A stretch of DNA of 59,282 nt from Gammaproteobacteria bacterium (GTDB lineage: Bacteria; Gemmatimonadota; Gemmatimonadetes; Longimicrobiales; Gaopeijiaceae): NCBI GenBank assembly GCA_009843625.1, contig VYDD01000156.1, forward strand, positions 2,566 to 61,847. Reading direction: 5' to 3'. The notes under the pieces were generated by a model that saw nothing but the letters and a program-made list of their open reading frames with translations, made no database searches and was not told the DNA's origin. The translations under genes and the position numbers were made by a program. Of the stretch, positions 30,954 to 59,282 are shown in pieces (within the stretch, counting starts at the first letter, position 1; each line of letters begins with the position of its first letter).

Positions 30954-30959
30954 GGCGGA

Positions 30960-31440
30960 ACACCTCCAAGTGCCGGAGCTGACTCGCTGTTCGGCAGGCT
31001 GAGCCGGCGCAGGCTCTCCAACGATGGGCACCCGATACTCATGCTCGGACCTTGAGACCTGAGGGGGAAGGGCACCGGAAGAGCCGTCCTTGCCGGCCAG
31101 CCCGGCAAGCCTCGATGCGCATCCGCTGGTACGCGTCGCCCCACATCCCCAGCGTGGTGTCGCCGCCCCGACGATAGGCGGTACCACGGCGTCGACGTCA
31201 GTGGCCAGGATCCCAGGTGGGCGCCGAGTTCGCGCGCGAGCAACTCGCTCGCGGCGTGCTTGTCGATCACGGCCTCGATCCCGCGCAGTTCGCTGCGACC
31301 CGAGTACGCCGGGGGATGCCGTCGCCGCCCAGGCAGATCACGATCGTCCCGCGCTCGAGGAGCCAACGGACCGAGTTGGGGCCATATTGGGTGGTACGGG
31401 GTGGGTTCCGGCGGGACGACACGGGCTTAGGGCTCCAGAA
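30960..31440 (-). pseudogene. arcC: Carbamate kinase remnant (N-terminally truncated, at least 2 frameshifts)
   Basis: Three frames carry consecutive carbamate kinase blocks: SPKPV...VRWLLERGTIVICLGGDGIP, then LRGIEAVIDKHAASELLA, then ILATDVDAVV ... IVGEPAPAQPAEQRVSSGT. Compare the family motifs SPKP, GGGGIPV, GVEAVIDKD and the C-terminal GT. Coordinates are approximate. Confidence 0.6.
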
Positions 31441-33165: not shown

Positions 33166-33178
33166 GCGTTACCCCAAG

Positions 33179-35233: not shown

Positions 35234-35262
35234 GTCCGGCGACAATCGTTCGCTTCCTTCGC

Positions 35263-37589: not shown

Positions 37590-37594
37590 TTGGC

Positions 37595-39055: not shown

Positions 39056-39141
39056 AGTGCGCCCTCAAGGTTTAGTCGGAATCGGACGCGGCTGGATCGT
39101 GGGCGGCGCCGCGTGCACCGTGCATGCCGAGGGAGGATTGC

Positions 39142-41118
39142 ATGAAGGTCTCGACCATTCTCGACCATGTCGACAGCGGCGACATGGCGCTACCCAAGTT
39201 CCAGCGCGGCTACGTCTGGAACCGCGATCAGGTGCGCGGGCTGATGGACTCGCTCTACCGGCGCCACCCGGTCGGGAGCCTGCTGGTCTGGGCCACCCCG
39301 GCCGAGGATGCGAGCCACCGGGGTGACCAGGAGCTCGCGCCGGGCGTCGTGAGGCTGTTGCTGGACGGGCAGCAGCGCATCACCTCGCTCTACGGGATCA
39401 TGCGGGGGGAGCCGCCGGCCTTCTTCGACGGCAACAAGCGGGCTTTCACCGACCTCTACTTCCACATCGGGACCGAGGAGTTCCGGTTCCACCAGCCCCT
39501 ACTCATGCGGGGCGATCCCCTCTGGATCAACGTCTCCGAGCTGATGCAGGCCGGGACCACGGGGCTGGGCCGGCACATCGCGCGGTTCGGCGAACTGGAC
39601 GAGCACGCGGACATGCAGGCCGAGTTCATCGGGCGCCTCACCAAGATCCTCGGCATCAGCGAGATCGACCTCCACGTCGAGGAGGTGACCGGCACCGACA
39701 AGACCATCGAAGTCGTGGTCGACATCTTCAACCGGGTCAACAGCGGCGGCACGAAGCTCTCGCAGGGCGACCTCGCGCTCGCCAAGATCTGCGGCTCGTG
39801 GCCCGAGGGGCGCGAGGACATGCAGTCGATCCTGGCGCGCTGGCGCAAGAACGGCTACGACTTCAACCTCGACTGGCTGCTCCGCAACGTGAACGCGATC
39901 GTGACTGGGGAGGCGCGCTTCTCCCACCTCCACGACGAATCGATGGGCGCCGTTCAGGAGGGCCTGCGCCGCGCCGAGAAGGGCGTGGACTACGCGCTGA
40001 ACCTCATCGCGGGCCGGCTCGGCCTCGACCACGATCGCGTCCTCTTCGGCCGCTACGCGCTGCCGGTGATGTCGCGCTACATCGACCGCCGCGGCGGGCA
40101 TCTGGGGAACGCAGCCGAGCGGGACCGCCTGCTCTACTGGTACTTCCAGAGCGCGATGTGGGGTCGCTTCTCGGGCTCGACGGAGACGGTGCTCGACCAG
40201 GACCTGGACGCGATCGAGGATGTCGACGGCGGCATCGAGCGGCTCATCGAGCAGCTCCGGCTCTGGCACGGCGGCTTGCGTGTCGAGCCAGCGCACTTCA
40301 GGGGGTGGAGCCTCGGAGCACGCTTCTACCCGGTCCTCTACGCCCTCACGCGCGTGGGGGAGGCTCGGGACTGGGGCACAGGCCTTGTGCTCCGACACGC
40401 GTTGCTCGGGCGCATGAACGAACTCGAAGTGCACCACATCTTCCCGAAGGCTCTGCTCTACCGCGCGGACGTCAAGCGCGCCCAGGTCAACGCCGTTGCC
40501 AACTTCTGCTTCCTCACCAAGGACACCAACCTCCAGATCAGCGACCGTCCGCCGGCGGAGTACTTCCGGGAGGTCGAGGCGAAGCATCCCGGCGCGCTCG
40601 CCTCGCAGTGGATCCCGATGGATGAGGAGCTGTGGGAGACCGAGAACTACGCACGCTTCCTGGAGGAACGCCAGCGGCTGCTTGCGGGGGCCGCAAACGC
40701 GCTGCTGGATGAGCTTCTGCACGACGCGCCCGCCGCCGCGGAGGCACCGGCGGCCGCCGTGCCAGAGGCCGCGGCGAGCGAGCCGGCGCCTGTTCCGGGA
40801 GGCATCGAGGACGCCGAGGAGGAGGCCGTCCTCCGCTCAATCAACGATTGGGTGCGGGGACAGGGCCTGCCCGAGGGCCACATCGAACACGAACTTGCGC
40901 ATCCGGAGACGGGCGACCCGCTCGCTATCCTCGACCTAGCATGGCCGGGCGGACTCCAGGAGGGCTACAGCGAGCCGGTCGCGCTGCTGCTCGGGGAGGA
41001 ACAGGAGACACTCCAGATCGCGAACGACCACGGCTTCCGGCACTTCACCGACACCGAAGCGTTCAAGCGCTACGCCGAGGCCGAGGTGCTGGCGCTGGCG
41101 GGAGAAGCCGCCCCGTGA
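39142..41118 (+). CDS. GmrSD-type enzyme (DUF262 ParB-like N-domain plus DUF1524/HNH-like domain) with extra C-terminal region
   Basis: LPKFQRGYVWNRDQVRGLMDSLYRRHPVGSLLVW and LLDGQQRITSL (DUF262), then ELEVHHIFPK...NAVANFCFLTKDTN (His-Me finger). GGGAGG lies 5 nt before ATG 39142. Confidence 0.85.
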   Translation: MKVSTILDHVDSGDMALPKFQRGYVWNRDQVRGLMDSLYRRHPVGSLLVWATPAEDASHRGDQELAPGVVRLLLDGQQRITSLYGIMRGEPPAFFDGNKRAFTDLYFHIGTEEFRFHQPLLMRGDPLWINVSELMQAGTTGLGRHIARFGELDEHADMQAEFIGRLTKILGISEIDLHVEEVTGTDKTIEVVVDIFNRVNSGGTKLSQGDLALAKICGSWPEGREDMQSILARWRKNGYDFNLDWLLRNVNAIVTGEARFSHLHDESMGAVQEGLRRAEKGVDYALNLIAGRLGLDHDRVLFGRYALPVMSRYIDRRGGHLGNAAERDRLLYWYFQSAMWGRFSGSTETVLDQDLDAIEDVDGGIERLIEQLRLWHGGLRVEPAHFRGWSLGARFYPVLYALTRVGEARDWGTGLVLRHALLGRMNELEVHHIFPKALLYRADVKRAQVNAVANFCFLTKDTNLQISDRPPAEYFREVEAKHPGALASQWIPMDEELWETENYARFLEERQRLLAGAANALLDELLHDAPAAAEAPAAAVPEAAASEPAPVPGGIEDAEEEAVLRSINDWVRGQGLPEGHIEHELAHPETGDPLAILDLAWPGGLQEGYSEPVALLLGEEQETLQIANDHGFRHFTDTEAFKRYAEAEVLALAGEAAP

Positions 41119-41598
41119 ACGCGCCCGCGCATACCTAGCGAGTGTCGAGCACTTGGACCGTGACCGGACCACGCTCGTGCGTCGCAGGACGATCCGCTGG
41201 CCAGTCCATGATCCGTGCAGGCCCACTGTCGTGCCCCCGTCCCGGATAGCGCCGCCCGGCGCCGCGCCACGCCGCAGCAGCGAAGTCACGAGGCAAGCCC
41301 GGACCGACTTGGCCACTTCCTAGGAGTTCACGCAGCCCTCGCGCTGGCGGCACGACGCTCGGACAGCATTGGCGTCCATACGTCGTTTCATTCCCCATCT
41401 AGTCTCATCATACGTATTTCATATCGACGCGTTTCGCGCGGCCGGGCATGCTCTCACGCGGGAGCCTGCGGCGACACATCGGCAGCGTGTGGTGCCGGCG
41501 ATCGATGCGTCGAGTCCCGTCGTAACTCCCGGCTCGGGCTTGTGCGATGGGCGAGTGCCGCCCGACCGCGGATGTGCGTGTGTGAAGAATCGACGGCG

Positions 41599-43851
41599 AT
41601 GCCCAGCGACACGTTCCACGCACCGGCGTCGCGCAGCGTGACCGCTGCCCAAGACACGGTCCAGCGCACAGCGATGTCCGGCGCCGAGGAGGCAGTCAAC
41701 TCGGTCACGCACCCGATCATCAATTCACCCTACGAACAGCCCACACGCTATTGGAGGCTCGACCACGAGCACAGAGCGACATCCGAGCAGGTGATCGGTC
41801 GACGGCCGAGCGCGAACCTTCCGGCCGTTCCCACACAGCGATTGGGTGAACAGCTACCCCTCATTCACAACCAGCTCGTGAACGATATCCGCGAAGCCGT
41901 TGGAATCTGGCGTGCGAACGGATACGCGGGAGCGACTGCGAATACGAAGCGGCTGCTCGCTCACTGGACCAACCCGCTCGCGCTACGTCGGCTCTTCTTC
42001 GCCCAAGTCGAGGCACTCGAGACCCTGATCTGGCTGACCGAGATTGCACCGGAGAGCGGCGCTCGCCCGGCCAATGACCTCCTACTCCGCGCGAGCCGAG
42101 CCGGCGGCGATCTCAACGACGGGCTGATGCGGATGGCCGTCAAGATGGCGACGGGTACTGGCAAGACCGCCACGATGGGGATGGTCATCGCCTGGCACGC
42201 GGTGAACGCTGGCGGCGGCCGACGCAATGCCCGTCACACAGGCCGCTACCACACGCAGTTCCTAGCCATCACGCCCGGCCTGACCGTACGTGAGCGACTG
42301 CGTGCCCTCGACCCGGCCGCCCCGAGCAATGTCTACGCGGAGCTCGATCTCGTGCCGGCCGACCTTCGCATGCATCTGGGCCAGGTGCATGTGCGGGCCA
42401 TCAACTTCCAAGCATTCCAGCGCCGTGACGTGCTTGGCCAGAACGTGACCGGCGATACACGGAGGTTGCTTCGCCGGTCCGGCGAGCGCGTCCTCGAGAG
42501 TTCGAGCGCGATGTTGCAGCGAGTGCTACGGGGAATGCCAGCGCTGGCTGGCGCGGGCAAGATCGTAGTGCTCAACGACGAGGCTCACCATTGCTACCTC
42601 CCCGGGGCGGAGCGTGGCCCCAATGCGAAGCCACTCCTCGACGAGAAACCCGACCCTCGGGACGAGCCGGCCGCGCTCTGGTTCAACGCCTTGCGCAGCC
42701 TCCGGGAGGCGGAAGTGCTGGCAGAGCCCATCTACGACTTCTCGGCGACCCCAATCTTCATTAGCACCTCGGCGCGCAAGGACGCGCAGATGTTCCCCTG
42801 GTGCGTCTCAGACTTCAGCCTGCTCGATGCGATCGAGTCCGGCCTGGTCAAGATCCCACGCGTCCCGGTCGAGGATGACAGCGACGCCGATTCCCCTGTC
42901 TGGCGGCGACTGTTCCAGAACACCAATCCGAAGACGCTTCATCGCCACGGACTGCACGGAGCGATCGCGTCGGGGCTCGATGCGCTCTATCGCAACTACG
43001 AGACGATCTACGAGCAGTGGTGCGGCGAGGGCGCCGAGCGACCCATGCCTACGCCGCCCGTATTCATCGCCGTCGCGGGCAACATCGCCAACGCCGAGGC
43101 ACTACACGACTACATGGCCGGCTACGCCGAGAAGGACACGAGTGGCGACACCGCCTATCGCCCCGGCGCCTGCCAGCTCTTCTCGAACGTGCTGCCCGAT
43201 CGGTCTGGCTGGGAGCCGTCGCTCAGGACGCTTCTCGTCCATTCGCAGCTCGACCAGGAAACGACGATTGGCAAGGGCAGCAGGCTTGGCCGTGCGATCT
43301 CCGCGCAGGCGGCGCTGCTTCGCGAGATGGGTGGCAGCTCGCTTGCGGGCATGGACGATCAATCGGTCGTGCGCGAGGCGCTGAACACGATAGGCAGGGT
43401 GGGGAAGCTCGGCGAGCAGATCCGCTGCGTCGTATCGGTATCGATGCTGACTGAGGGCTGGGACGCGAAGTGCACGCACATCCTCGGCTACCGGGCGTTC
43501 TCGACGCAGTTGCTCTGTGAGCAGGTAGTCGGGCGGGCGCTTCGGCGAACGAGCTACGACGTGGGCGAGGACGGGCTGCTCCCACCGGAGTTCGCGGAGG
43601 TTCTCGGAGTCCCGTTCGACTTCCTTCCTCCCGCCACGAGAAGCGTCGCGCCCCAGCCCGAACCGCGGCAGGCCTACGAGGTCAGGACACTGCCCGGCAG
43701 GCGGGAGGTCCGCATTGACTTCCCCTTGGTCGCCTCTTACCGGTTTGCACAGGGATCGGGGAGTCGACGCCTCGATCCAGCCCGAGTCGCGCCCTTCCAG
43801 CTTGAGGACGCCCCGACGATAGCGGTGATGGTGGGCGTGGCCGGGAGATAG
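41599..43851 (+). CDS. res: Type III restriction Res subunit, helicase/ATPase part (ends at an in-frame TAG)
   Basis: IINSPYEQPTRYW N-terminal motif, Walker A MATGTGKTAT, DEAH box VLNDEAHHC and motif VI-like QVVGRALRR. The start is uncertain (ATG 41599 or 41674; the track ORF starts at 41215). Confidence 0.8.
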   Translation: MPSDTFHAPASRSVTAAQDTVQRTAMSGAEEAVNSVTHPIINSPYEQPTRYWRLDHEHRATSEQVIGRRPSANLPAVPTQRLGEQLPLIHNQLVNDIREAVGIWRANGYAGATANTKRLLAHWTNPLALRRLFFAQVEALETLIWLTEIAPESGARPANDLLLRASRAGGDLNDGLMRMAVKMATGTGKTATMGMVIAWHAVNAGGGRRNARHTGRYHTQFLAITPGLTVRERLRALDPAAPSNVYAELDLVPADLRMHLGQVHVRAINFQAFQRRDVLGQNVTGDTRRLLRRSGERVLESSSAMLQRVLRGMPALAGAGKIVVLNDEAHHCYLPGAERGPNAKPLLDEKPDPRDEPAALWFNALRSLREAEVLAEPIYDFSATPIFISTSARKDAQMFPWCVSDFSLLDAIESGLVKIPRVPVEDDSDADSPVWRRLFQNTNPKTLHRHGLHGAIASGLDALYRNYETIYEQWCGEGAERPMPTPPVFIAVAGNIANAEALHDYMAGYAEKDTSGDTAYRPGACQLFSNVLPDRSGWEPSLRTLLVHSQLDQETTIGKGSRLGRAISAQAALLREMGGSSLAGMDDQSVVREALNTIGRVGKLGEQIRCVVSVSMLTEGWDAKCTHILGYRAFSTQLLCEQVVGRALRRTSYDVGEDGLLPPEFAEVLGVPFDFLPPATRSVAPQPEPRQAYEVRTLPGRREVRIDFPLVASYRFAQGSGSRRLDPARVAPFQLEDAPTIAVMVGVAGR

Positions 43852-44709
43852 GTGTTCGTGGGATTTGTTCAGTATCATCTTCGTCGGCAGCGCGTGGAGG
43901 CAGAGATCGCCTCGGCGCTCGTGGCCGTGTGGGAGCGCGAGTTGCATGACGCAGGAGAGCCCGCCCGGCGCATTTTCCTGTTTCGGAACGCTGTCGCCGA
44001 TGTGCGCCGCTGGCTCGACCTGCCCCAGGTTGCCGCGACCGACGGTGGCGACCTCTGGCGGCGACTCGCTACTCCTGAGGCCCGGCGACAGGCAGTCGTC
44101 GCCATCCTCGACGCCTGCGTACCGGGCGCGGGAATGACCGACAGAGTGACGGGCGTCTACGAACACCCCGACCTGCGTTCGACACACGGCACCCTGTACC
44201 ACACGAGCCTCGGCGATCACTATCCGGTGTCGCTGGACGGTTTCACCGAGCGGTCAGAGATCAACATCGCCGCATGCCACTCTGGACTCGAGACGGAGAT
44301 CGCCAAACTCCTCGACACGCACCCCGAGGTGACGGCTTGGGCGCGGAACTACGGGCTGGGATGGACACTGCCCTACCTGCACGACGGTGTATGGAAGCGC
44401 TACGAGCCTGATTTCGTGGCCCGCCTCTTCGGAGGCCGTGCGGCCGACGACGCGGTCTATCTGATGGTCGAGGGGAAGGGGCGGCCCGATGACGAGTCGG
44501 CTGCGAAGCGACTCCACGTGGAGGACTACTGGATTCCGGCCGTGCGCAACAACGACAAGTTCCATCCGTCACTGCGGCGATGGGCGTTCTCGCAGATCCC
44601 GGCGTCGTACGAGGCCTACGAGTCCGACCATGGCTTACTGGCGGTCGATCTCAACGCCGCGATCGACCGCGCGCGGCAGCTGGTACCAGCCGCTGGAGGA
44701 GGTCACTAG
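43852..44709 (+). CDS. res: C-terminal endonuclease part of type III Res, separated from the helicase part by an in-frame stop
   Basis: Same reading frame as 41599..43851, beginning immediately after the TAG at 43849-43851. Contains a PD-(D/E)xK-like YEPDFVARL...YLMVEGKG. Confidence 0.65.
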   Translation: MFVGFVQYHLRRQRVEAEIASALVAVWERELHDAGEPARRIFLFRNAVADVRRWLDLPQVAATDGGDLWRRLATPEARRQAVVAILDACVPGAGMTDRVTGVYEHPDLRSTHGTLYHTSLGDHYPVSLDGFTERSEINIAACHSGLETEIAKLLDTHPEVTAWARNYGLGWTLPYLHDGVWKRYEPDFVARLFGGRAADDAVYLMVEGKGRPDDESAAKRLHVEDYWIPAVRNNDKFHPSLRRWAFSQIPASYEAYESDHGLLAVDLNAAIDRARQLVPAAGGGH

Positions 44710-44711
44710 CC

Positions 44712-47372
44712 ATGCCGACGCGCCGCAGTAGTCAGTCGAGCCAGCAGACCGGGAGCTACACTTACGTTTCGGCCTCGCGCAAGAATCTGCCAACCGAGCA
44801 GACCGAGCCGCTGATGGGTCCTGACGACAAGCGCCCGAGCCCGTTCACGCCGGAGATCCAGGAGTTCGACGAGCAGCCGCGGCTGGCGTGGGCGCGCGGT
44901 CCTCGCCTCGACGACGCCGGCGGGCTCAAGCCACACGACGCGCATCCTCTCTATGTGCGCGAGAAGATTGAGCCGCACCTGTTCGTGAAGCAACTTCAGT
45001 CCGAGCCCGCCGGCACCCAGACCAGCATGTTTGAGGCATTCAATGGGCTCCCTGAGGGGAACGCACTCGACTGGTACAGATACGACGGGAACTGGCAAAA
45101 CCGGTTGATCCACGGTGAAAGCGCTCGCGTGATGGCCTCGCTTGCCGGACGCGAGAATCTCGCCGGTCACGTGCAGATGATCTACTTTGACCCGCCCTAC
45201 GGAATGAGCTACAAGTCGAATTTCCAGGTCGCTGTCGATGACCGCGACACACCCGAGAATCGCAAAGGACTGCCGCCGGACCCGCAGACGATCGCGGCCT
45301 TCCGCGATACGTACGCGCGCGGGGTCCACTCATATCTGGATGGAATCCTCGAGCGATTAGCGCTGTGCCGGGCCCTTCTGGCCGAGACGGGATCGATCTT
45401 TGTGCAGATCGGCGACGAGAACGTGCTGCGGATGGGTCTGCTGCTCGACGAGGTGTTCGGTGCCGAGAACCGCGTCGCGCTGATTCCGTACGCGACAAGT
45501 GGTAGCTCGTCGGCCAACACGCTGCCGAGCGTGGCTGACTTCCTGTTGTGGTACGCCAAAGACAGGGGACAGGTGAAGTACCGTCAGTTGTACGAGTCGC
45601 TCGATCGGGCTGGCAAGATCGAGCACATGAACTGGGACGCGATGGTGGAATTGGCGGACGGGACTACGCGCGGACTGACCGCCGACGAACGCGCTGCCCC
45701 CGACACGCATCTGCCTGATGGAGCTCGCATCTATCGGCGAATGCCGCTCACCTCACCGGGGACATCGACCACGGGACGTTCTGAGCCCTACCACTGGCAG
45801 GGGCAAGACTGGCCATGCGAGGCCGGCCAGCAGTGGCGTGTGTCGAAGGAAGGAATGGACCGGCTGGCTGCGCTGGGTCGTTTGGACGCCGCCGGAGACG
45901 GTTCGCCGCTCCGCTGGAAGCGCTATGAGGACGAGGTGCCGGGGCGGAGGATCCACAATCTCTGGCACAAGCAAATGTCCACGACAGACAAGCGCTATGT
46001 GGTCCAGACCGCCAACAGCGTGATCGAGCGCTGCTTGCTGATGGCCACCGACCCTGGGGATCTCGTCCTCGACCCCACGTGCGGGGGCGCCACAACCGCG
46101 TACGGCGCCGAAAAGTGGGGCCGCCGCTGGATCACGATCGATACGTCGCCGGTCGCGACCGCGATTGCGCGGCAGCGCATCGCCACTGCTACGTTCTCCT
46201 TCTACACGCTCAGGGATTCTCCCGATGGGACGAGAGCAGAAGCCGAACTGTCTGGGCGGGACCCCGTCGACAAGCCGACCGCAGGCTATGGGCACGATCC
46301 GGCGGCAGGGTTTGTGTATCGGCGCGTCCCGTCCGTCAGTGCCGCGTTACTCGCCTATGACCAAGATCCCCCGGCAACCATGCTCGTCGACCAGCCTCAC
46401 GTCACGCGCGGCGTCGTACGTGTCGCCTCGCCGTTCACCGTCGAGAGCGAGACGCCTTGGTCGTACCTCCCATTCGACGACCCTAGAGAAGCGGCATCCG
46501 TCGACGCCGAGCCTGCTCGGGCTGCGCCTGCGGCCGATGGCGACTACGCGGCAACCGTGCTCGAGAACATCTGTGAGTCCCCAATCCGGGGCGGTCGGCA
46601 GGGCAACGACCTCTACGTTACGGATGTGGAGCCATGGCCGGGCTCGAGCAGACTCGTCTCTCACCTGGCGACCTACGTTGCGGACGGTGACGGCTCCGAG
46701 CGGACGGCCGCGTTGATGATCGCGGCGCCCGAGGTGATCGTGAGCCGGGCACTGTTGGCGGCGGCCGCCACCGAGGCCGCGAGGACGGACGGCGGCATGG
46801 ACGACCTGCTACTGCTCGCCGTCGCGTACGACTTCGCTCCTGACTGCGAGGACCGCTACGGGCGCGTCCGCGTGATTCGCGTTAGGCCGCACCGCGACCT
46901 GCAGATCGGCGATCTCAAGCCCGACGCCGCACATCAGGCGTTCGTCATGGTCGGTCAGCCGGAGATCGTCGTGCATGTAGAGCGCTCGAACCCGGAGACC
47001 GGCGTTCCGCGCGTTTCTGTCGAGGTCCTGGGCTACGACACCTACAGTCCGGCAACGGGCACTGTCGAGGCGTCCGTCGGCGCTGCAAGGGTCTCGTGCT
47101 TCTTACTGGACACGGACCATGATTCCATGAACTTCTATGCTCGCCGCATGCACTTTCCGGGCGCGGACGGTGACCGGCAGGTCAACGCGCTCAAGAAGGC
47201 GCTGGGGCGCTCGCTCGACGACGACGAATGGGCGGCCGCGCTCTCGAGTCGTTCCGCGCCGTTCGACCGTCCGGAAGGAGGACTCGTCGCAGCCAAGATC
47301 ATCACCGCCGATGGTGGCGAGATGACGGTCGTGCGGGAGCTCGGGACCAACACGAGACCCAGCGAGGGGTGA
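44712..47372 (+). CDS. mod: Type III Mod-like adenine DNA methyltransferase (beta class)
   Basis: Motif IV IYFDPPYG precedes motif I VLDPTCGGATTAYGAEKWGRRWITID. ATG 44712 lies 2 nt after the upstream stop. Confidence 0.85.
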   Translation: MPTRRSSQSSQQTGSYTYVSASRKNLPTEQTEPLMGPDDKRPSPFTPEIQEFDEQPRLAWARGPRLDDAGGLKPHDAHPLYVREKIEPHLFVKQLQSEPAGTQTSMFEAFNGLPEGNALDWYRYDGNWQNRLIHGESARVMASLAGRENLAGHVQMIYFDPPYGMSYKSNFQVAVDDRDTPENRKGLPPDPQTIAAFRDTYARGVHSYLDGILERLALCRALLAETGSIFVQIGDENVLRMGLLLDEVFGAENRVALIPYATSGSSSANTLPSVADFLLWYAKDRGQVKYRQLYESLDRAGKIEHMNWDAMVELADGTTRGLTADERAAPDTHLPDGARIYRRMPLTSPGTSTTGRSEPYHWQGQDWPCEAGQQWRVSKEGMDRLAALGRLDAAGDGSPLRWKRYEDEVPGRRIHNLWHKQMSTTDKRYVVQTANSVIERCLLMATDPGDLVLDPTCGGATTAYGAEKWGRRWITIDTSPVATAIARQRIATATFSFYTLRDSPDGTRAEAELSGRDPVDKPTAGYGHDPAAGFVYRRVPSVSAALLAYDQDPPATMLVDQPHVTRGVVRVASPFTVESETPWSYLPFDDPREAASVDAEPARAAPAADGDYAATVLENICESPIRGGRQGNDLYVTDVEPWPGSSRLVSHLATYVADGDGSERTAALMIAAPEVIVSRALLAAAATEAARTDGGMDDLLLLAVAYDFAPDCEDRYGRVRVIRVRPHRDLQIGDLKPDAAHQAFVMVGQPEIVVHVERSNPETGVPRVSVEVLGYDTYSPATGTVEASVGAARVSCFLLDTDHDSMNFYARRMHFPGADGDRQVNALKKALGRSLDDDEWAAALSSRSAPFDRPEGGLVAAKIITADGGEMTVVRELGTNTRPSEG

Positions 47373-47729
47373 GGAGAAGCGGTGTCCCATCGCGTCTCGT
47401 CCGCCCACTGCTGTGAGCCCGCCCAGGCTTCACACAACGAGACGGCCGAGAGATTCTCTAGCTGGGCTGTGAAGGCAGGGTGCGGTCGGACTTGCGGGGT
47501 GAGGGGCGCGCCGGCAGGTAGAGAGCTAACTTCGCGCTTCCGCACTGGTGCTTAAGGCCGCTCCCGCTAGGCATGAATCCCTACATTCCACACCGTGTCG
47601 TCCGGACTCATCGCTGATGGCTTGCTAGAGTGGGGCGGCAGCAGCTCAGCTCTGCGTGCCACCCTTGCTTCCGTTCCACGGCTTCCCGTGAAGGAAGCAG
47701 AGCGCGAGTGTGATGGGCCACACTCTGCC

Positions 47730-49130
47730 TCACTGGACGCCCTCTCGCGCGAACGCTGTCAGGATGCGCTGGCTCGGGAAGTCGGACAAGGAAACGAGCT
47801 TGTTCGCCAGGGCGACGGGTATCAGCGCGTTGTCGTACATGCTGCAGCGGAGCTCCCCAATCAATGTCAGGGCCTCATCCAGATGTGGCAGATCGCTGGC
47901 TTCTGGCTCCGCTCTGTAACTTCGACCTGGGATCGTGACAACGTGCATCTCGCCGCCCGGCGCTCGAAACAGGACCTTCTGCCCGTAATATGTGTTCTGA
48001 CCATAAGCCGAACTGGCGACGCCGGGCACGATATGGCGCCGAATGTAGGCATCGCCGACGATCAAGAACGACCCAGGCTGCAGACGGTCCTGGATCTCGG
48101 CAGCATGTTCGACGAAACTACCGCTCTTCTCGAGGCCCGCAAGGCGAAGCGTAGGCCCGGCATCCCCTCCGGGCTCGCTGACTAGGTGCTCCACCAATTC
48201 GCGCATAGGCCGGTACAGCGGCGCCACAAGGCCGAAGAAGGCCAGCGGGCCGTCTTTGATGAAAAAGATATTCCTCATCAGGCTTGGCCTAATCCGCTCA
48301 ATAATGTTGTGAATCACATGCACAAGCACCAGCTGCTCTAGCATCGTCATGACGTAGGCAACGATTCCTCCTGCGCCCATCTCCTCATCGACGCGTTCAT
48401 GGAGTCTGAACACATCGGTAAGGTACACCGGCGCTGCACACTGAGGACACACCTTCTCAGTCGGCTCGCTGAACCGAAAATGCAGCGCGCCGTAGCCGCA
48501 ACCAGAGGGGCAGCGTTCTACTGTCTGACTCCCGTAGTCTTCTTCGGGCCGCCATCGTCTGAACAGAAACCACCGGAGGCTTGTCATGAGAACGTCTCCA
48601 TCGGCACGTTCCCTTGTGAAGAACTCGTATATTGTTCTCCGAATGGTGCCCGAGAGTGACTCCTCATCTTCCTGTCGTATGCCCTTTAATGGGAGCACTA
48701 ACGTGTAGCGCTCAATATTCTTCAAGCGGGCAAGATCCTCTGGTGCGATGAACCTCCTGTCATCCAGTGCACGAAGATCTGCGAGTTCGAACAGCAGCGG
48801 ACCGAATGTGAAGAACGCGATAGAGGCCGACGGATACTCCTCACGCACGTAAGTCTCAGTATACCCACCATCTACTGCGATGATGGCGGTCACCTCTGAT
48901 GTATCTACATCGCCAAGCATACCAAGCCTCGAGTGAAGTGCTTCGGGAGTTGGAGCTGAGGGCATGACACAGCGACTCAAGTAGGATTGCACGTCTGGAT
49001 TCTTGATAATCTCCGCGTGCGCTATTTTGCTGGCGCGTTCGATGGGCTTCCGCCCCTTGGAGCTGTAAGCCACCCGATTAGCCGCCCGCCACAGTGAACC
49101 GGTCGATTTGTACAGGTACTGTGAAGGCAT
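47730..49130 (-). CDS. nurA: NurA-like nuclease with inserted CxxxC...CxxC zinc ribbon
   Basis: IIAVDGGY, FIKDGPL and GLEKSG are NurA-type acidic/catalytic blocks. CPSGC...CPQC lies at 48438-48512. An alternative GTG start at 49073 sits just after the HerA stop. Confidence 0.75.
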   Translation of the reverse strand: MPSQYLYKSTGSLWRAANRVAYSSKGRKPIERASKIAHAEIIKNPDVQSYLSRCVMPSAPTPEALHSRLGMLGDVDTSEVTAIIAVDGGYTETYVREEYPSASIAFFTFGPLLFELADLRALDDRRFIAPEDLARLKNIERYTLVLPLKGIRQEDEESLSGTIRRTIYEFFTRERADGDVLMTSLRWFLFRRWRPEEDYGSQTVERCPSGCGYGALHFRFSEPTEKVCPQCAAPVYLTDVFRLHERVDEEMGAGGIVAYVMTMLEQLVLVHVIHNIIERIRPSLMRNIFFIKDGPLAFFGLVAPLYRPMRELVEHLVSEPGGDAGPTLRLAGLEKSGSFVEHAAEIQDRLQPGSFLIVGDAYIRRHIVPGVASSAYGQNTYYGQKVLFRAPGGEMHVVTIPGRSYRAEPEASDLPHLDEALTLIGELRCSMYDNALIPVALANKLVSLSDFPSQRILTAFAREGVQ

Positions 49131-51003
49131 TGGAGTACGTCTTCATACGGATGAACCCCTTATCCGTAGTGCGCCGGAGGCTGTCGATAAAGTCTTCGAA
49201 GTCGTAGTACTTCGCTATTTCTCGGAGTTCCTCCTGATTATTCAGATGCGAAACGAACCAGTTCTGTGTGTTCTTTAGCACGTTTGCCGATATCGAGCTA
49301 ACTTCCTGCGTCGCATAGGCTAAGCCGAGTCCTAGCTTTGCCCCTTCCTTTGCTATACGATTATAGACAAGAGTAAGGTCGGAGTCCGTTCGCTTAGGAA
49401 ATAGGTTGTGTGCTTCCTCGAAGTACATCTGAATGTAGTTACCGGGATTGTTGTTCACAAAACGGTCCATGGCTTCTTGAAAAATTGCCGAACAGAGGCG
49501 GTCGGAGTAAGTACGTTGAATGACCGGATTACCTTGGGACAGGTCGATAATGACAATCTTCCCGTTGCGAAGTAGGGAGACGACTTCTTCCTCGTAGGAC
49601 GCCTGCAGCGTGTCCGTGTGAAGGTCGCGGAGGGGGATGAGCTTTCGGAAGCCGGCCTCGCTGGGGGCGCCGCCCGGTCTGGATTTCCTGGTCAAGAACC
49701 GCATCAGGTTCTTGAGGTCATCGTCTGCCCACTCGTGATTGTTTCGTTGACGATACTCGGCGAATGCGGGCGCATCGTTGTAGTTGTCCCACACCCACAG
49801 GAACCAGCGCCCAGCCTCGCGCGGTGTGAGGCCGGCGCGTGGATCGAGTCCTGTGGCCTGGTCTGCTGCGGCAGTCCCGACAAAGGCAACTCTATGAGCT
49901 GCCGGAACGGGGAATCCTGCGGCCTCAAGAATGGCTTGGTAGCAGGCGAGGCGGCGCCCATGTCGCGTCATGGCGCTGTAGTCGGCGGAGTCGGGTTCCT
50001 CCCAGTCCACGTTGAGGAAGGCCTGCGTATAGATCGCGGTGTCGTCCTGAAGTCCAGCGCGAATCATCTCCTGGCCTTGGCGGACTTGCCGATAGAAGTT
50101 TAGCTTCATGACCTTGAAACCAGGCTTTTGTAGAATGCTGTAGCGTGTAACGTCGTCTTCGTAGAGTTGGTAGATCGCTGTTCCCTCGTCCTGTAGGTTC
50201 GAGTTGGCGTATTCGCCGTTTACGTCGAAGACGATCTGGCCGACAGGTGAGACTGTCGCACTTTGTGCACCCTGCACTGATGCGGCAAGTTCTGTGGTTG
50301 CCCGAATTATCATCTTGACGGTGTTCGACTTGCCTGTGCGCGTCATCCCAAAGAGAGCGGTGCGCTTTCCGAGATAGTCCAGAGCTGACACGTAGAGCGG
50401 CACAGAGTCGTTCTGCACATGGCGCCGGCTCGATGCGTAGCGTACCTGGCCGATGCGCTGATCCCCGGGTCCACCGGGAAGCTCATCGCCTTGACGGAAG
50501 TTGACGATGTACTCGAGCACACTTCCTGATGGCTTGTAGACGGAGTAATTGTTTGGGCCGTAGAAGTTGTCGACATCCGCACCGAATCGCGTGTTGCCCG
50601 TTGCATCCCGGTAAAACGATCCCAGGACCCGGCACTCCAAACCAGAGAACTGAAATTCGTAGCGTGTATAGCTATCGAGATGTCCTGCGTCCGTGTTCGC
50701 AGTCTGACTTTCCTTGTAGTAATCCACCATGGCAGCCACTACATCTGAGTCAGTCGGCAGGGCCGTCGGCCCGAGGACACGAAGCAGCACAACCTCGGGG
50801 TTGTCGTCGTCCCTATCGAAGAGCGCCGCAAGGAAAGCGCCGGCGGGCACCCCCCCTACTCGCTCTTTCCAGTGGTCGTTCGAGAGTAGCTTCATCTTGT
50901 TGAAGTCGAAATAGAAGGGACGACCGATGAACGCATCTTCCCTCGCGACGTCCCGGAAGACGTCTATGGTCGCCAGTTCCCTAAGTCTCTCAGTGATCGA
51001 CAT
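49078..51003 (-). CDS. herA: HerA/FtsK-superfamily ATPase (DUF87-like)
   Basis: Walker A LFGMTRTGKSNT, Walker B-like MYFEEAHNLFP and LAYATQEVSSIS. ATG 51003 forms an ATGA overlap with the MTase stop. Confidence 0.85.
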   Translation of the reverse strand: MSITERLRELATIDVFRDVAREDAFIGRPFYFDFNKMKLLSNDHWKERVGGVPAGAFLAALFDRDDDNPEVVLLRVLGPTALPTDSDVVAAMVDYYKESQTANTDAGHLDSYTRYEFQFSGLECRVLGSFYRDATGNTRFGADVDNFYGPNNYSVYKPSGSVLEYIVNFRQGDELPGGPGDQRIGQVRYASSRRHVQNDSVPLYVSALDYLGKRTALFGMTRTGKSNTVKMIIRATTELAASVQGAQSATVSPVGQIVFDVNGEYANSNLQDEGTAIYQLYEDDVTRYSILQKPGFKVMKLNFYRQVRQGQEMIRAGLQDDTAIYTQAFLNVDWEEPDSADYSAMTRHGRRLACYQAILEAAGFPVPAAHRVAFVGTAAADQATGLDPRAGLTPREAGRWFLWVWDNYNDAPAFAEYRQRNNHEWADDDLKNLMRFLTRKSRPGGAPSEAGFRKLIPLRDLHTDTLQASYEEEVVSLLRNGKIVIIDLSQGNPVIQRTYSDRLCSAIFQEAMDRFVNNNPGNYIQMYFEEAHNLFPKRTDSDLTLVYNRIAKEGAKLGLGLAYATQEVSSISANVLKNTQNWFVSHLNNQEELREIAKYYDFEDFIDSLRRTTDKGFIRMKTYSNAFTVPVQIDRFTVAGG

Positions 51004-52265
51004 CACGACACTCCAGTGGCCCAATCGGAGGCGGGCTTCCAACGTATCGGCTCGAGAGGTGGGAGCTCTGCGGACCCCTTACTGGTGGGGGATAGGATGA
51101 GGATCCGGTCAGTCTTTGTCGCCTGCCCGCGCCCCTGCTTCCAGATTCGGCTGACCTTGTGTTGGGTAGGAAGGCGGTCGGTAACGATACCGTGAAGGCG
51201 CCAACCCAGTGGTCGCGCGGTCTCTTCCCAGACTCGCGCGGCGAGGTTCGTAGTCCGTGCGGTGCTTCGCTCGTGTACGTCTCCGATCATCAGGCACAGA
51301 TACCCATCCTCGCGCACTGCTGATGCTAGTCGGTCCAGGACAATGCCGACGAACTCAAGGTACTTCGGTAGGGAAGCAGTCGCGACGAGCCCGCGGTCAA
51401 CGCTCTTCGGTTCTCGCTTGAGCATCCACAGCCGTACCCAGTTGTACTTTCCGTACTTGATGACACTGAGGTATGGGGGCGATGTGAACACTAGCTTGGC
51501 GGGCCGGTCGTGAACCTGCGCGGCTATAGGATCGCGCGCATCCTGCTGCCAAGCACTTCCTCTCGTAGCTTCTTGCCTCGGTAACTGCATTCTCTCCAGC
51601 TTTCGTTGGAGAAGATCGAAGACATCCACATCGGGGCGTTCCAGGCGGTGCTTCTTGATGTAGGCGCCGACATAGCCAGGAGACATAGAGAATGTGTTGG
51701 GCATGCTGACCGACAGGCCTCGTGCTGGCCTTCCGGGCCTGTAGTTGGCGTGCATGATGCCCAAGAGGACCGCCATGAGCAGTCGGTCATCTCGGCGACT
51801 GAGCGTAAGTGCGTCTCTCAACCAGATGAGCTGGCCGAGCACTTGCTGCGAGTAGAGCATTTGGATCTCAGCGGGGGCGGTACTGCCATCTCCGGGGACG
51901 CACTTCTGACGCAAGAATCCTAGGCGGTCACGCGCTTCGTCAGCAGTTGGAGGGTTCACCTTGCCTGCGGTGAGGAGGTACGCGAGGGGATTCGCATCTG
52001 AGCCCATTCCGACGCGGCCCATGCGACACGCCTCCATTGGAGTAGTGCCGCGGCCCGCAAAGGGATCGTAGACGACGTCTCCAGGCTCGGTCAGCCATCG
52101 AACGAAGACGTGCGGCACCTGCGGCGGGAACATCGCGAAGTAGGAGCACACCGAGTGCAACGGGTGTCCCCACCGTCGCGGAGCGCGACGCCAACGTTGA
52201 GGCAGTCCGCTAACGTGTGGGGGTTTCGTCACTGGGATTCCCATCGCACTCCTTTGTGTGGTCAC
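51003..52265 (-). CDS. Amino (N4-C or N6-A) DNA methyltransferase
   Basis: Motif I VYDPFAGRGTTPMEA precedes motif IV LVFTSPPY, the same architecture as 36210..37589. GTG 52265 overlaps the exonuclease stop (GTGA); an alternative ATG lies at 52244. Confidence 0.85.
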   Translation of the reverse strand: MTTQRSAMGIPVTKPPHVSGLPQRWRRAPRRWGHPLHSVCSYFAMFPPQVPHVFVRWLTEPGDVVYDPFAGRGTTPMEACRMGRVGMGSDANPLAYLLTAGKVNPPTADEARDRLGFLRQKCVPGDGSTAPAEIQMLYSQQVLGQLIWLRDALTLSRRDDRLLMAVLLGIMHANYRPGRPARGLSVSMPNTFSMSPGYVGAYIKKHRLERPDVDVFDLLQRKLERMQLPRQEATRGSAWQQDARDPIAAQVHDRPAKLVFTSPPYLSVIKYGKYNWVRLWMLKREPKSVDRGLVATASLPKYLEFVGIVLDRLASAVREDGYLCLMIGDVHERSTARTTNLAARVWEETARPLGWRLHGIVTDRLPTQHKVSRIWKQGRGQATKTDRILILSPTSKGSAELPPLEPIRWKPASDWATGVS

Positions 52266-53434
52266 CGGACTGCCTCACCAATCTCCGCCAGAAAGTCAGG
52301 CACCGCCATCACCGGAATCCCGTGACGCCGTGCCGTGTGTGCCTTCGCTGACTGGCTGGAGGTGTCCGCCGCGACCAGCAAGTCGCAGCCCCGCTTTGTG
52401 ACGCGGCTGACGGGCTGCAGATTGGCGAACGCTGCATGGGCCTCCAGCCAAGCCCGCGAGGCCTCCGGCGCGTCCCCCGTGAAACAGACACGCATGCCCG
52501 GACGCAACTGGCTCCCGGTCGGCAAGTCCGTGACGTCAGGGATGACCACGTCGGTGACTTCGAGTGCGGCCGCGGTCTGGCGTATGAGTCGCTGTTCGGC
52601 TTCCGTGACGATTCCGTCGCGCTCGGCGGCGGCAATGATCGATGCGAGATACGAGCGGTGAGCATCCTCGCGCGCCCTATCGGAGATGCCCAGCGCTCTC
52701 GCCAGCTCCCGGATCGCCGCATGTTCCTGATCGTCGATGTAGTGGTCATCCAGCACCCAGTCCAGTGCATCGAGGTATTGGAGCAACGCCTCGTCCGAGT
52801 ATGGGTAGTGCGCAAGCGAGATGATGCGTGCCATCTCGCTTGTTCCGGCATCCGCACCCTCTCGCCGGAGGGTCCTCGGAGCCGGGCTTTGCGAGAGGTA
52901 GCCAACCGTCGCTGCCGTTGTGTCTCGTCGCTCACCCGTCAGTGCGGTCGCTCGCACGAGCGCAGCGGTGGCGCGGGCATCAGCAAGCGCCCGATGCGCT
53001 GTGTCAAGCGCGATTCCGTACCTGCGGCACGCGGCACCGAGCTTCTCCTGCGTCGCCCTCAGCGTGCACAGTCCGAAACCAGCGTCAAACTCGACTTGAA
53101 GCCGGGCGAACTCGTACCCTAGCATTCGCGTGTCGAAGCTGATGTTGTGCGCGATCAAGACCGCACCGTGCAGTCGACGGGCGAGCGGAGCCCCGATTTC
53201 GGCGAATGTCGGGGCTGCTTGCACCATCGACGCTGTGATCCCGTGTAGCGCAACTGGACCGACATCCCGCTCGGGATTGATGAGCGTGTCGTATTCGTCC
53301 AGTGTTTCCCAGGTGTTCGGATCGAGCGTGATGACGGCTATCTCAACGATTCGGTCATGCCGCCCCAAACCCGTCGTCTCGCAGTCGACGACGGCGAATT
53401 GCGGTGCTGGCCTCCGCGACCGCCTTTCGAGCAT
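52262..53434 (-). CDS. DEDD (DnaQ-like) 3'-5' exonuclease with C-terminal BRCT-like domain
   Basis: ExoI AVVDCETTGL, ExoII LIAHNISFDTRML and ExoIII HRALADARATA. The C-terminus reads MRVCFTGD...CDLLVAADTSSQSAKAHTARRHGIPVMAVPDFL (BRCT pattern). Confidence 0.85.
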   Translation of the reverse strand: MLERRSRRPAPQFAVVDCETTGLGRHDRIVEIAVITLDPNTWETLDEYDTLINPERDVGPVALHGITASMVQAAPTFAEIGAPLARRLHGAVLIAHNISFDTRMLGYEFARLQVEFDAGFGLCTLRATQEKLGAACRRYGIALDTAHRALADARATAALVRATALTGERRDTTAATVGYLSQSPAPRTLRREGADAGTSEMARIISLAHYPYSDEALLQYLDALDWVLDDHYIDDQEHAAIRELARALGISDRAREDAHRSYLASIIAAAERDGIVTEAEQRLIRQTAAALEVTDVVIPDVTDLPTGSQLRPGMRVCFTGDAPEASRAWLEAHAAFANLQPVSRVTKRGCDLLVAADTSSQSAKAHTARRHGIPVMAVPDFLAEIGEAVR

Positions 53435-53972
53435 CTTGCTACCCTCATCCGCCTAGCCTCGGGCTTCGGGATGATACCCGGGCGTCCTACGCTTGCCCCA
53501 CTGGCGGAACCCGCGAGTTGTTCGGTTTTCCTTGGACTCGTAGCCATGACACCACTTGGTTGAACCGTTGCCCCCATCGGAAGCGAAGGTCGCCCGCGAG
53601 CGCGTCGCTCAAGACGCTAGAGTCTGAGAGGGAGTCGGGCTCCGCGCGCGACTGCGTCACGTTCCGCTCGAGCCAGCGCCGCAACCCGCGTCCTGAGAGT
53701 CCGGGCTGGCGCTCTGACGGCCAGTGCGAGGTTCTCTGCCATTCGCGACCATCAGTGTCTCGAACTGAGGGTCGCGCGAGCGCCACTGTGGTGACATCGA
53801 CCTCGATTCGACGACTACCTCCCTGACCCCTGCACACCTACCGGGACCGCCGCGACTTCGACGTATCGCCGGACGACAGCGGCACGGTGGGTAGCCGTCG
53901 CGGCTCTTGTCAGCCGAGTATGGTGACTGGTACCAGCGACGGCAGGTCAACCAGGTCCGACCGGAGGTGAAC

Positions 53973-54419
53973 ATGCGGTACGTCAGGTTCTTGGCAGCCT
54001 TCGTTGTGTACACGGTTATCGATGTCGGGTGGAACGTCTCGCCCGTTGCGCGGGGCATGTATGAGCGCCTCTACGATGCAAGTGGCAACGACGTGCTCCT
54101 CGACGAATTCGGGAGGGAGATGGGCACGTGGGGCGGAGCGGAGATGCTCGCACTGCTCGCATTCCTGGCGCTGATCGCGCTCGCCAACAGCTACCTGGCG
54201 ATCGAACCGGCGGTGCAGGAGAGAAACCTCACCAAGGCGATGAAGAACAGCTTCGTCTTGGGCTGCGCCGCATACGCCACCTACATCGTGCCGATCTTCC
54301 TGATGCTATCGACGTGGCCGGCCGTCTTGGTGCCCGTTGACATCCTCATCGGCGGTCTCCTGAGCCTGATAACGTCCACGATCGTCACCTACGTGACTCT
54401 TCGCCGAGCAGCCACCTAG
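53973..54419 (+). CDS. DUF2177-like small membrane protein
   Basis: GGAGGTG precedes ATG 53973. Four hydrophobic segments show a VIDVGWN...YATY...WP...VD pattern. Confidence 0.55.
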   Translation: MRYVRFLAAFVVYTVIDVGWNVSPVARGMYERLYDASGNDVLLDEFGREMGTWGGAEMLALLAFLALIALANSYLAIEPAVQERNLTKAMKNSFVLGCAAYATYIVPIFLMLSTWPAVLVPVDILIGGLLSLITSTIVTYVTLRRAAT

Positions 54420-58397: not shown

Positions 58398-59282
58398 CTA
58401 GGCCCACTCCAAGCGGCTCCGAAGCGAGTTGAGCTTCGAGCCCCATGGAACCAAGTCGTTGTGCTGAAGGCGGCCCACGACGATGCCTGGGTCAATGCCA
58501 AGGTCTGAGGCCGCTGCTCTGATGCTCGACTCACTGAACTCGGATCGGAGGACAAACTCCTCCCACGCGTCCACTGGGATCAGCAACTCCTCTGCGAGAC
58601 GATTCGCTTCCACCTCCCGCGGACTTCTGCGGGGGTTGCCGTCCAGTTCAACAAACACGTGCCGATGTTCGTGCATGAGTACGTGGGCCGCTTCATGGAA
58701 GAAGGTGAACCAGAAGATGTCGGCCCAGCTGTAGCGAAGGTTGAGTTGAATCAGGGCCTTTCGTGGATTGAGCCACCGAGCGACTCCATTGGCACCGATC
58801 TTCGCGAATTCCGGTACGACGATCGCTGCTACTCCAGCACGGGCGCACGTCTGCTGAAGGTCTCTCCAAGCGGCGCTCGGTGGGTGCGTCGTGAGGACTC
58901 GCGCATGCTCGATCGCTTCGCGGAACAGCGCTTCGTCGTAGTCCGCGGTCTCGAGATCGATGCCCTCGACTTCACCCTTCCGCACCCAAGCGGCCAGTGC
59001 GCCGGTGTCGATTGCCGCGTTTCCGGTCACGCGGAAACCCAACGCCTCCTGGTATTCGGCGTCCCAATTCGAGAATGACGCGACACCAAAGAACTTCAGC
59101 AGCGCGCGCAACCGTGCCACTGGCTCCGCGGCGGTCGGAATCCAGCCGCGGTGCTCCATTTCTCCCACCGGGAAACGGTCGAGCCAATCCAGCTCTGTCC
59201 GCAAAGCCGAATCGTCGGCAGCGCGGGCAAGCGCTAGCCGATACCGTGCCTCGAGATTCACCCAGACCTGCGCCGGCGTTCC
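58398..59282 (-). CDS. ImmA/IrrE-family metallopeptidase domain protein (probably an XRE-HTH fusion), 5' end beyond the window
   Basis: HEXXH motif FFHEAAHVLMHE. The frame stays open to the window edge (..TPAQVWVNLEARYRL resembles the end of a HigA/XRE HTH). Confidence 0.75.
   Translation of the reverse strand, partial: GTPAQVWVNLEARYRLALARAADDSALRTELDWLDRFPVGEMEHRGWIPTAAEPVARLRALLKFFGVASFSNWDAEYQEALGFRVTGNAAIDTGALAAWVRKGEVEGIDLETADYDEALFREAIEHARVLTTHPPSAAWRDLQQTCARAGVAAIVVPEFAKIGANGVARWLNPRKALIQLNLRYSWADIFWFTFFHEAAHVLMHEHRHVFVELDGNPRRSPREVEANRLAEELLIPVDAWEEFVLRSEFSESSIRAAASDLGIDPGIVVGRLQHNDLVPWGSKLNSLRSRLEWA

Follow-up and report, generated by a model that had tools for sequence, protein, structure and literature searches.

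The minus strand of a 59,282-nt stretch of contig VYDD01000156.1 (assembly GCA_009843625.1, Gaopeijiaceae), hereafter the window, carries four genes, for a DEDDh exonuclease, an amino-methyltransferase, a HerA-type ATPase and a NurA-like nuclease. An initial annotation had read them as a single operon and a candidate restriction-modification (R-M)-like defence system, and all four open reading frames (ORFs) are present at the coordinates that it assigned (Table 1). We conclude that positions 47730-52244 probably constitute a self-contained three-gene R-M-like cassette, comprising the methyltransferase, HerA and NurA, and that the exonuclease at 52262-53434 is a separate defence candidate, known in PADLOC as PDC-S48, situated alongside. 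R-M-like logic accounts for the triad most economically.

Relatives of the NurA-like protein numbered about 2,000 in 90% clusters, and a HMMER search over 50% representatives gave 1,015 clusters, of which 340 reached E <= 1e-30. We surveyed 80 genomic loci from a species-representative genome set, about 73 of which had a readable upstream region. HerA was immediately upstream of NurA in all 80 loci where the contig permits, and in 71 loci 7-70 nt separated the end of the HerA match from the start of NurA; in the window the two co-oriented genes are separated by 4 nt. When the flanking ORFs of the 80 loci were subjected to unsupervised clustering, exactly one further conserved neighbour was detected, a methyltransferase. 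It was present in 63 of the 80 loci (approximately 64 of the 73 informative ones), 63 of 64 copies were on the HerA strand, and the median distance from its end to the HerA start was 6 nt. Thus, of the four-gene neighbourhood originally proposed, methyltransferase-HerA-NurA was conserved, whereas the exonuclease as a fourth component was not, being absent from 78 of the 80 loci.

In the clade of the window, the slot upstream of HerA is occupied by a permuted methyltransferase of ~410 aa, and homologues of the same family as the window enzyme are directly upstream of HerA in loci L001-L026. In a distant clade, a beta-class N6_N4_Mtase of ~325 aa (TSPPF...DPFxGSxTTG; Pfam 3.9e-32) was found in the same slot, which is thus filled by two unrelated methylase architectures. 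The identities of the three triad proteins to those of the window co-varied (Spearman 0.85-0.89, 22 loci); the methyltransferase, HerA and NurA thus diverge together, which suggests inheritance as a unit.

The NurA-like protein is 65-78% identical to that of the window in Myxococcota, Acidobacteriota, Gemmatimonadota, Desulfobacterota and Pseudomonadota. Identities of 40-53% were found in Actinomycetota, Chloroflexota, lineages of the candidate phyla radiation (CPR), Cyanobacteria, Planctomycetota, Bacillota, Bacteroidota, Deinococcota and methanogenic archaea. Because NurA identity is high across phyla and the G+C content of the cassette (0.56-0.61) is below that of the core (~0.70), horizontal transfer is indicated, and by these comparisons the triad is a conserved, horizontally mobile cassette found in defence contexts. 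Remote members (the metagenomic locus L088, Deferribacter, Halorarius and Vibrio) retain the triad in varying gene order. The Deferribacter megaplasmid pDF308 (L096, 1126-4924) has the order methyltransferase-HerA-NurA, but its HerA gene is interrupted by an IS200/IS605 TnpA/TnpB insertion that has probably inactivated this copy, and an archaeal Halorarius plasmid has HerA-NurA-methyltransferase. In the temperate Vibrio phage 10N.286.55.C4_PE001, a Vibrio cyclitrophicus prophage (L097, 1-5750), genes for HerA, a NurA-like protein 25% identical to that of the window and a convergent Type II methyltransferase directly adjoin the integrase gene. Defence cargo of prophages is usually located at such a position.

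The exonuclease is an independent single-gene defence candidate that adjoins the cassette and lies outside its conserved core. Its identification as a DEDD exonuclease with intact motifs was upheld: it matched Pfam RNase_T (5.8e-24), contains the motifs DCET, HNISFD and HRALAD, and its DEDDh residues D17/E19, D101 and H147/D152 are intact and invariant across 26 homologues. The best Foldseek matches were to Pol III epsilon. A TerB-like helical middle domain, seen in 21 of the 26 homologues, had been overlooked. The BRCT-like tail that had also been assigned to this protein is weakly supported, at the level of the family: PTCB-BRCT matched 6 of the 26 homologues (best 2.1e-5) but not the window protein itself, and the C-terminus of the AlphaFold2 (AF2) model is predicted to be beta-alpha-beta-alpha-beta-alpha.

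We regard the exonuclease as a separate unit because it matches PDC-S48 over its full length (4.6e-99; residues 11-383, profile positions 4-403 of 411), is missing from 78 of the 80 loci, occurs in unrelated contexts and has nucleotide homology that ends at the gene borders. PDC-S48 is a single-gene candidate in PADLOC; in the literature searched we found neither a published mechanism for it nor a description of its recurrent adjacency to HerA-NurA-methylase modules. Relatives of the window exonuclease were found without the module beside ParDE and DpdD (L092, 85% identical), in conserved metabolic synteny (L089 and L094, 70%) and among insertion sequence (IS) elements (L090, L091 and L095, 66-67%), and the module was absent within 9 kb of a further relative (L082, 48%). 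When the window was compared with loci L088, L092 and L093, nucleotide homology (82-83%) was limited to the exonuclease gene, running from ~20-45 nt upstream of the start codon to the stop codon. Further, L093 represents the L088 locus after a deletion. An 89-aa ORF (L093 2556-2898) is an N-terminal stub of HerA, and ~4.5 kb encoding the rest of HerA, NurA and the methyltransferase has been lost relative to L088 8591-13369. The deletion is flanked by a PDC-S48 exonuclease gene, which is intact, and a UvrD-PDDEXK gene.

These findings count against the strongest rival explanation, namely that the four genes form one system in which the exonuclease adds 3'-5' degradation to the reported 5'-3' polarity of NurA, so that both strands of unmarked DNA are destroyed. 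The G+C content of the exonuclease gene (0.645), which exceeds that of the cassette, likewise argues against it. On the other hand, the 18 nt from the exonuclease stop to the methyltransferase start (or the 4-nt overlap, if the longer ORF is used) leave no noncoding room for a separate promoter, and the exonuclease in the window is probably co-transcribed with the cassette. HerA/FtsK defence proteins with a fused 3'-5' exonuclease domain have also been reported (PMC10853773), which provides a precedent for such a combination. Members of the exonuclease family have been placed beside HerA-NurA-methylase modules at least four separate times, in independent arrangements (the window, L019, L016 and L088). 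Within the 80 loci, homologues were found only in L019 and L016, both of Actinomycetota, where they are 32-34% identical and downstream of NurA: the order in L019 is methyltransferase-HerA-NurA-exonuclease with an 89-nt gap, and in L016 the exonuclease is one gene further downstream. In L088 the order is exonuclease-HerA-NurA-methyltransferase; the exonuclease is ~85% identical to that of the window, whereas the module proteins belong to a different subfamily and are ~30% identical each. A metagenome scan with the exonuclease returned seven loci, one of them informative. The association is therefore not trivially random, and the exonuclease may be a facultative partner, possibly cooperating with the module. 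Nevertheless, we consider a four-gene system unlikely, and assign a similarly low probability to a functional partnership between the exonuclease and the module.

Returning to the three-gene cassette, the methyltransferase contains motif I (DPFAGRG, 52047-52067) and motif IV (SPPY, 51471-51482, residues 255-258). Because DPFAGRG is N-terminal of SPPY, unlike the usual beta-class order, the enzyme is classed as a circularly permuted N4/N6 amino-methyltransferase. A check of the motif order agreed with the earlier description of an SPPY-type enzyme built like the methyltransferase of the thyX cassette in the same window, with which it shares its layout. Pfam N6_N4_Mtase matched residues 41-92 (1.3e-12), aligned to the C-terminal part of the profile only, and the PADLOC model MTase_II PDLC03325 matched nearly the full length (7.2e-35); the PADLOC matches are to generic Type II models. 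Matches in the PDB, to M.PvuII and other N4-cytosine enzymes, cover the motif I region only. Together with the SPPY/SPPF motif IV, these matches hint at N4-methylcytosine (m4C), and the target base is probably N4-cytosine or N6-adenine.

The ATPase was correctly recognised as HerA/FtsK-type. It matched Pfam DUF87 (5.3e-12), and its Walker A (GMTRTGKS, 50326-50349, K225) and the FEEAH of Walker B (49408-49422) are invariant in 67 homologues, in which a candidate arginine finger (R549) and a sensor glutamine (Q566) are also conserved. It thus has the features of the ATPase in canonical HerA-NurA: a P-loop ATPase of the HerA/FtsK clade in which both Walker motifs, the arginine finger and the sensor glutamine are intact. 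Residues ~300-470 form a poorly conserved insert of ~170 aa. PADLOC HerA models matched only partially, at residues ~490-615. The closest solved relative is TdpA (9.3e-16 with the single sequence, 1e-25 with the family profile), and other HerA structures (SIR2-HerA, DUF4297-HerA and archaeal HerA) matched the profile at 1e-13 or weaker.

The product of 47730-49073 is, on the evidence of its predicted structure, a divergent NurA-like nuclease of RNase-H fold. Pfam NurA matched the window protein at 2.8e-4, slightly under the curated cut-off, and matched 11 of 25 family members (best 2.3e-7), in agreement with the original assignment. A search of PDB sequences with the NurA-family profile returned chance zinc-finger matches only and did not match TdpB; structure prediction was needed to reveal the NurA fold. 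In a Foldseek search with the AF2 model (predicted local distance difference test score (pLDDT) 76.5; predicted template modelling score (pTM) 0.79), the top match was TdpB as solved in complex with TdpA and DNA (8wfd_G; E 1.5e-5, prob 1.00, identity 16%). It was followed by 3taz, 9x1n, 2ygk and 1zup, which are NurA of Pyrococcus, Thermococcus and Sulfolobus, and TM1739.

The NurA motifs AVDGGY (D68, 48861-48878), KDGPL (D274, 48243-48257) and GLEKSG..H323 (48105-48137) are present, and the residues D68, D274, E315 and H323 do not vary among 42 sequences. We infer that these four residues map to the catalytic site; the conserved acidic and histidine residues are those expected of a NurA RNase-H-like nuclease. 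The protein also carries an inserted CxxC...CxxC zinc ribbon (48438-48512). Its termini are nearly invariant across phyla (residues 1-30, 48984-49073; and ~418-447, 47730-47820, the C-terminal LANKLVSLSDFPSQRIL segment) and were modelled with low confidence (pLDDT 29-60). These segments may be docking or contact peptides for HerA. Neither PADLOC 2.0 nor NCBIfam models matched the NurA-like protein. The expectation of an unnamed system was thus borne out in PADLOC for this protein, and for HerA and the methyltransferase, which had partial or generic matches, but not for the exonuclease.

By analogy, the best reading of the cassette is that of a methylation-marked counterpart of TdpABC. The available text of An et al. 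(Nat Chem Biol 2025) presents TdpABC as a phosphorothioate-based modification and restriction defence in which a single gene, tdpC, makes the mark, and TdpABC is counted in the literature among phosphorothioate-based R-M systems. The two have in common one DNA-modification gene, a HerA-like hexameric ATPase and a NurA-fold nuclease. Further, TdpA (PDB 8wet, 8wfd and 8y1k set) is the nearest solved relative of the window HerA by a wide margin (1e-25 vs 1e-13), and TdpB is the best structural match of the NurA model. They differ in that the modification gene of the window encodes an N6_N4 amino-methyltransferase, with no TdpC/DndC-like gene nearby, and sequence similarity is restricted to the ATPase core. 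The window proteins are longer (HerA, 641 vs 586 aa in TdpA; NurA, 447 vs 358 aa in TdpB) and contain a zinc-ribbon insert in NurA and a long variable insert in HerA. The window family is also not confined to thermophiles, unlike TdpABC. No TdpC enzyme accompanies the effector pair, and the sole conserved neighbour in the 80 loci is the methyltransferase, so that the cassette is not itself a member of TdpABC.

Other known systems were set aside on similar grounds. SIR2-HerA and DUF4297-HerA also use a HerA-family hexamer as the scaffold or motor of an anti-phage complex, but their effector is SIR2 or DUF4297 rather than NurA, they have no modification gene and they follow an abortive-infection logic; the neighbours of the HerA studied here are a methyltransferase and NurA. 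Type II R-M was rejected because the conserved partners of the methyltransferase are an ATPase and a NurA-fold nuclease and not an ATP-independent site-specific endonuclease, and Type I and Type III R-M because the motor is a HerA/FtsK-type ATPase and not a superfamily 2 (SF2) helicase. Against the eight-gene MADS (mad1-mad8), only weak, partial, motif-level matches to mad2 (2.6e-5) and mad8 (5.4e-10) were obtained, and the other mad genes were not found. A full-text literature search, with most subscription journals outside its reach, found no description of the methyltransferase-HerA-NurA triad. Within this search, the earlier statement that no such system was known holds for the triad itself, but TdpABC and an operon of the Thermus thermophilus element ICETh1 are related precedents. 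Relative to these analogues, what would be new is methylation in place of phosphorothioation in a modification-gated HerA/NurA-type effector.

We infer every step of the following mechanism. The permuted SPPY methyltransferase would mark the host genome at a fixed motif and serve as the self-marking component. The HerA hexamer would act as an ATP-driven translocase with a NurA dimer as its cap, an arrangement known from archaeal and Deinococcus HerA-NurA and from TdpAB, and the complex would thread DNA and degrade it processively. In TdpAB, phosphorothioate on self DNA reportedly inhibits both TdpA translocation and TdpB nuclease activity. By analogy, the host mark would stall or exclude the HerA-NurA machine, and unmarked incoming DNA alone would be destroyed. 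Candidate readers of the mark are the zinc ribbon in NurA and the ~170-aa variable insert of HerA.

Several observations weigh against this interpretation. In ~9 of the 73 informative loci, HerA-NurA was found without an adjacent methyltransferase; these loci are in cyanobacteria, mostly Nostocales (L037, L038, L040, L046, L047 and L071), together with L003 and L041, and include Archangium and a Gemmataceae metagenome-assembled genome. In one of them, on a Nostoc plasmid (L047), a transposase is in the methyltransferase position. The nuclease pair can thus persist without a linked mark. Further, the HerA-TdpA match is limited to the C-terminal ATPase region (~440-650 of 655 profile positions), the template modelling (TM) scores of the NurA model against TdpB are modest (0.47/0.56), and no sequence- or methyl-reading domain was identified in HerA or NurA. 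The reading of the family in terms of defence, methylation and toxicity comes from comparison of sequences and structures. We propose only tentatively, with somewhat less than even confidence, the wider view that the family represents a new R-M class, present in bacteria, archaea, plasmids and prophages, in which a processive, ATP-driven HerA-NurA shredder takes the place of a site-specific endonuclease and is halted by base methylation as a 'stop/self' signal, with PDC-S48 as an optional accessory that would supply degradation of the opposite polarity.

The ICETh1 operon raises the alternative that the cassette serves the processing and transfer of mobile-element DNA and not immunity. In this integrative and conjugative element (ICE), the Type IIG enzyme TthHB27I, the NurA-like TTC1878, the HerA/FtsK ATPase TdtA and the methylase TTC1880 (410 aa, N4/N6) are encoded in one operon. 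Export of donor DNA from the cell ('transjugation') depends on the NurA-like nuclease and TdtA, and the co-transcribed methylase is nearly dispensable, its loss having minor effects. The operon has been assigned to DNA donation, which is a further point against an R-M-like role. Compared by description only, ICETh1 resembles the window in its co-transcribed NurA-like protein, HerA/FtsK ATPase and 410-aa methylase, carried by a mobile element of low G+C. The occurrence of these three protein families in one ICE operon, with genetic evidence for a donation role, speaks for DNA transfer, as does the presence of the cassette family on plasmids and in a prophage. However, the ICETh1 order is NurA-HerA-methyltransferase with a Type IIG restriction enzyme in front, unlike that of the window, and TdtA reportedly associates with the membrane. 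The surroundings of the window cassette yielded no integrase, relaxase, Type IIG enzyme or tRNA gene, its flanks being defence genes, and most of the 80 loci have no conserved mobility partner. A role in DNA transfer is thus improbable.

Archaeal and Deinococcus HerA-NurA likewise combine a HerA hexamer with a NurA dimer, and their NurA structures rank behind TdpB in the fold search. They differ in having no methyltransferase partner, in the linkage of the archaeal genes to mre11-rad50 and in vertical inheritance, and their sequence similarity to the window proteins is remote. That the pair performs housekeeping end resection at double-strand breaks, with the methyltransferase as an unrelated neighbour, is highly improbable. 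The proteins do have the folds of the repair complex, and 'DNA double-strand break repair nuclease NurA' is the label of family members in several sources. However, the family has a patchy, clearly horizontal distribution and low G+C and is found in defence islands, on plasmids or in prophages. Neither the window nor the conserved neighbours of the 80 loci included Mre11/Rad50 genes, the link to a methyltransferase is retained with either methylase architecture and in several arrangements of the genes, and the module has been deleted in L093.

If the cassette restricts unmethylated DNA, it would be a mechanistically distinct branch of R-M, composed of a ring translocase and an exonuclease, in which the mark gates processivity and not cleavage at a site. 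It would also tie the long-debated HerA-NurA 'repair' machine to immunity, a question that a 2026 study of Thermococcus HerA-NurA raised as speculation only, in a form testable in bacteria. Further, a TdpAB-type effector would be combinable with different modification chemistries, in the way that marks vary among BREX, Dnd and Dpd. Such loci are apparently annotated at present as an orphan methyltransferase, since the Vibrio prophage record carries an R-M label on the methylase alone and PADLOC 2.0 has no model for this NurA. With a detection model for the triad, the classification of hundreds of loci would change.

The junctions of the four genes are less tightly overlapped than first described. 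The GTGA at 52265-52262, where the exonuclease stop meets the start of the maximal methyltransferase ORF, is present. However, ATG 52244 is preceded by AAAGGAG, and the closest homologue (L001) aligns from it, so that ATG 52244 is most likely a better start than GTG 52265. This start leaves an 18-nt gap after the exonuclease stop and no overlap. The ATGA reported at 51003-51005 was not found; the sequence there is GTGATG, in which stop and start have one base in common. For NurA, both a 53-nt overlap with HerA and a 4-nt gap had been considered, and the latter is supported, as most close homologues are 448-455 aa long and alignable from GTG 49073. The genes are richer in A/T than the core genome, as had been noted, with G+C contents of 0.571 (NurA), 0.558 (HerA), 0.610 (methyltransferase) and 0.645 (exonuclease) compared with ~0.70 in the flanking core. 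Direct or inverted repeats marking an insertion were sought at the cassette flanks, and only short, chance-level matches were obtained. In a promoter and terminator scan of 47300-54000, sites were not above those of shuffled sequence; the scan is uninformative for a high-G+C genome.

Table 1. Positions of the cassette, the adjoining exonuclease gene and other features of the window.
Feature	Position	Strand	Remarks
DEDDh exonuclease	52262-53434	-	390 aa
Methyltransferase, maximal ORF	51003-52265	-	420 aa, from GTG 52265
Methyltransferase, preferred start	51003-52244	-	413 aa, from ATG 52244
Methyltransferase stop/HerA start junction	50995-51010	-	GTGATG; TGA and ATG have one base in common
HerA, maximal ORF	49078-51042	-	654 aa
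HerA, preferred start	49078-51003	-	641 aa, from ATG 51003
HerA stop (TAA)/NurA start (GTG 49073) junction	49070-49082	-	spacer 4 nt
NurA-like, maximal ORF	47730-49130	-	466 aa
NurA-like, preferred start	47730-49073	-	447 aa, from GTG 49073
SIR2 (SIR2_2) and HerA (DUF87 + HerA_C) pair, canonical	19437-22578	+	G+C ~0.585
Two large ORFs, 1373 aa and 466 aa	23152-27273 and 29787-31187	-	no Pfam match at E <= 0.001
Five-gene cassette	32188-38626	-	G+C 0.584; CARF6-like (PADLOC 4e-86), other members in the text
GmrSD/HEC-05-type Type IV enzyme	39124-41118	+	
Type III R-M, Res-like gene	41215-43851	+	
Type III R-M, 285-aa ORF	43852-44709	+	
Type III R-M, Mod	44580-47372	+	PADLOC MTase_III 2e-149
M78/IrrE-type peptidase	58398-59261	-	PADLOC PD-Lambda-2_B, 4e-32; at window edge

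The surroundings of the cassette are a dense defence island, as had been proposed, including SIR2-HerA, GmrSD and Type III R-M systems among others (Table 1). The Type III R-M system (41215-47372) is convergent with the NurA gene. The window contains two unrelated HerA-based systems, and the two HerA proteins are alike at the motif level only (24% over 116 aa). Possible partner genes of the PD-Lambda-2_B-like peptidase may sit outside the window. The two large ORFs without a Pfam match are situated between the SIR2-HerA pair and the CARF/PRTase cassette at 32188-38626. In addition to the CARF6-like protein, the latter encodes an ORC-CDC6-like protein of 733 aa (PF24389, 3e-111), a PRTase-CE protein (PF24390, 4e-55), a permuted N6_N4 methyltransferase of 474 aa and a ThyX-like protein of 343 aa, an unusual pairing of a thymidylate-synthase-like enzyme with conflict-system domains.

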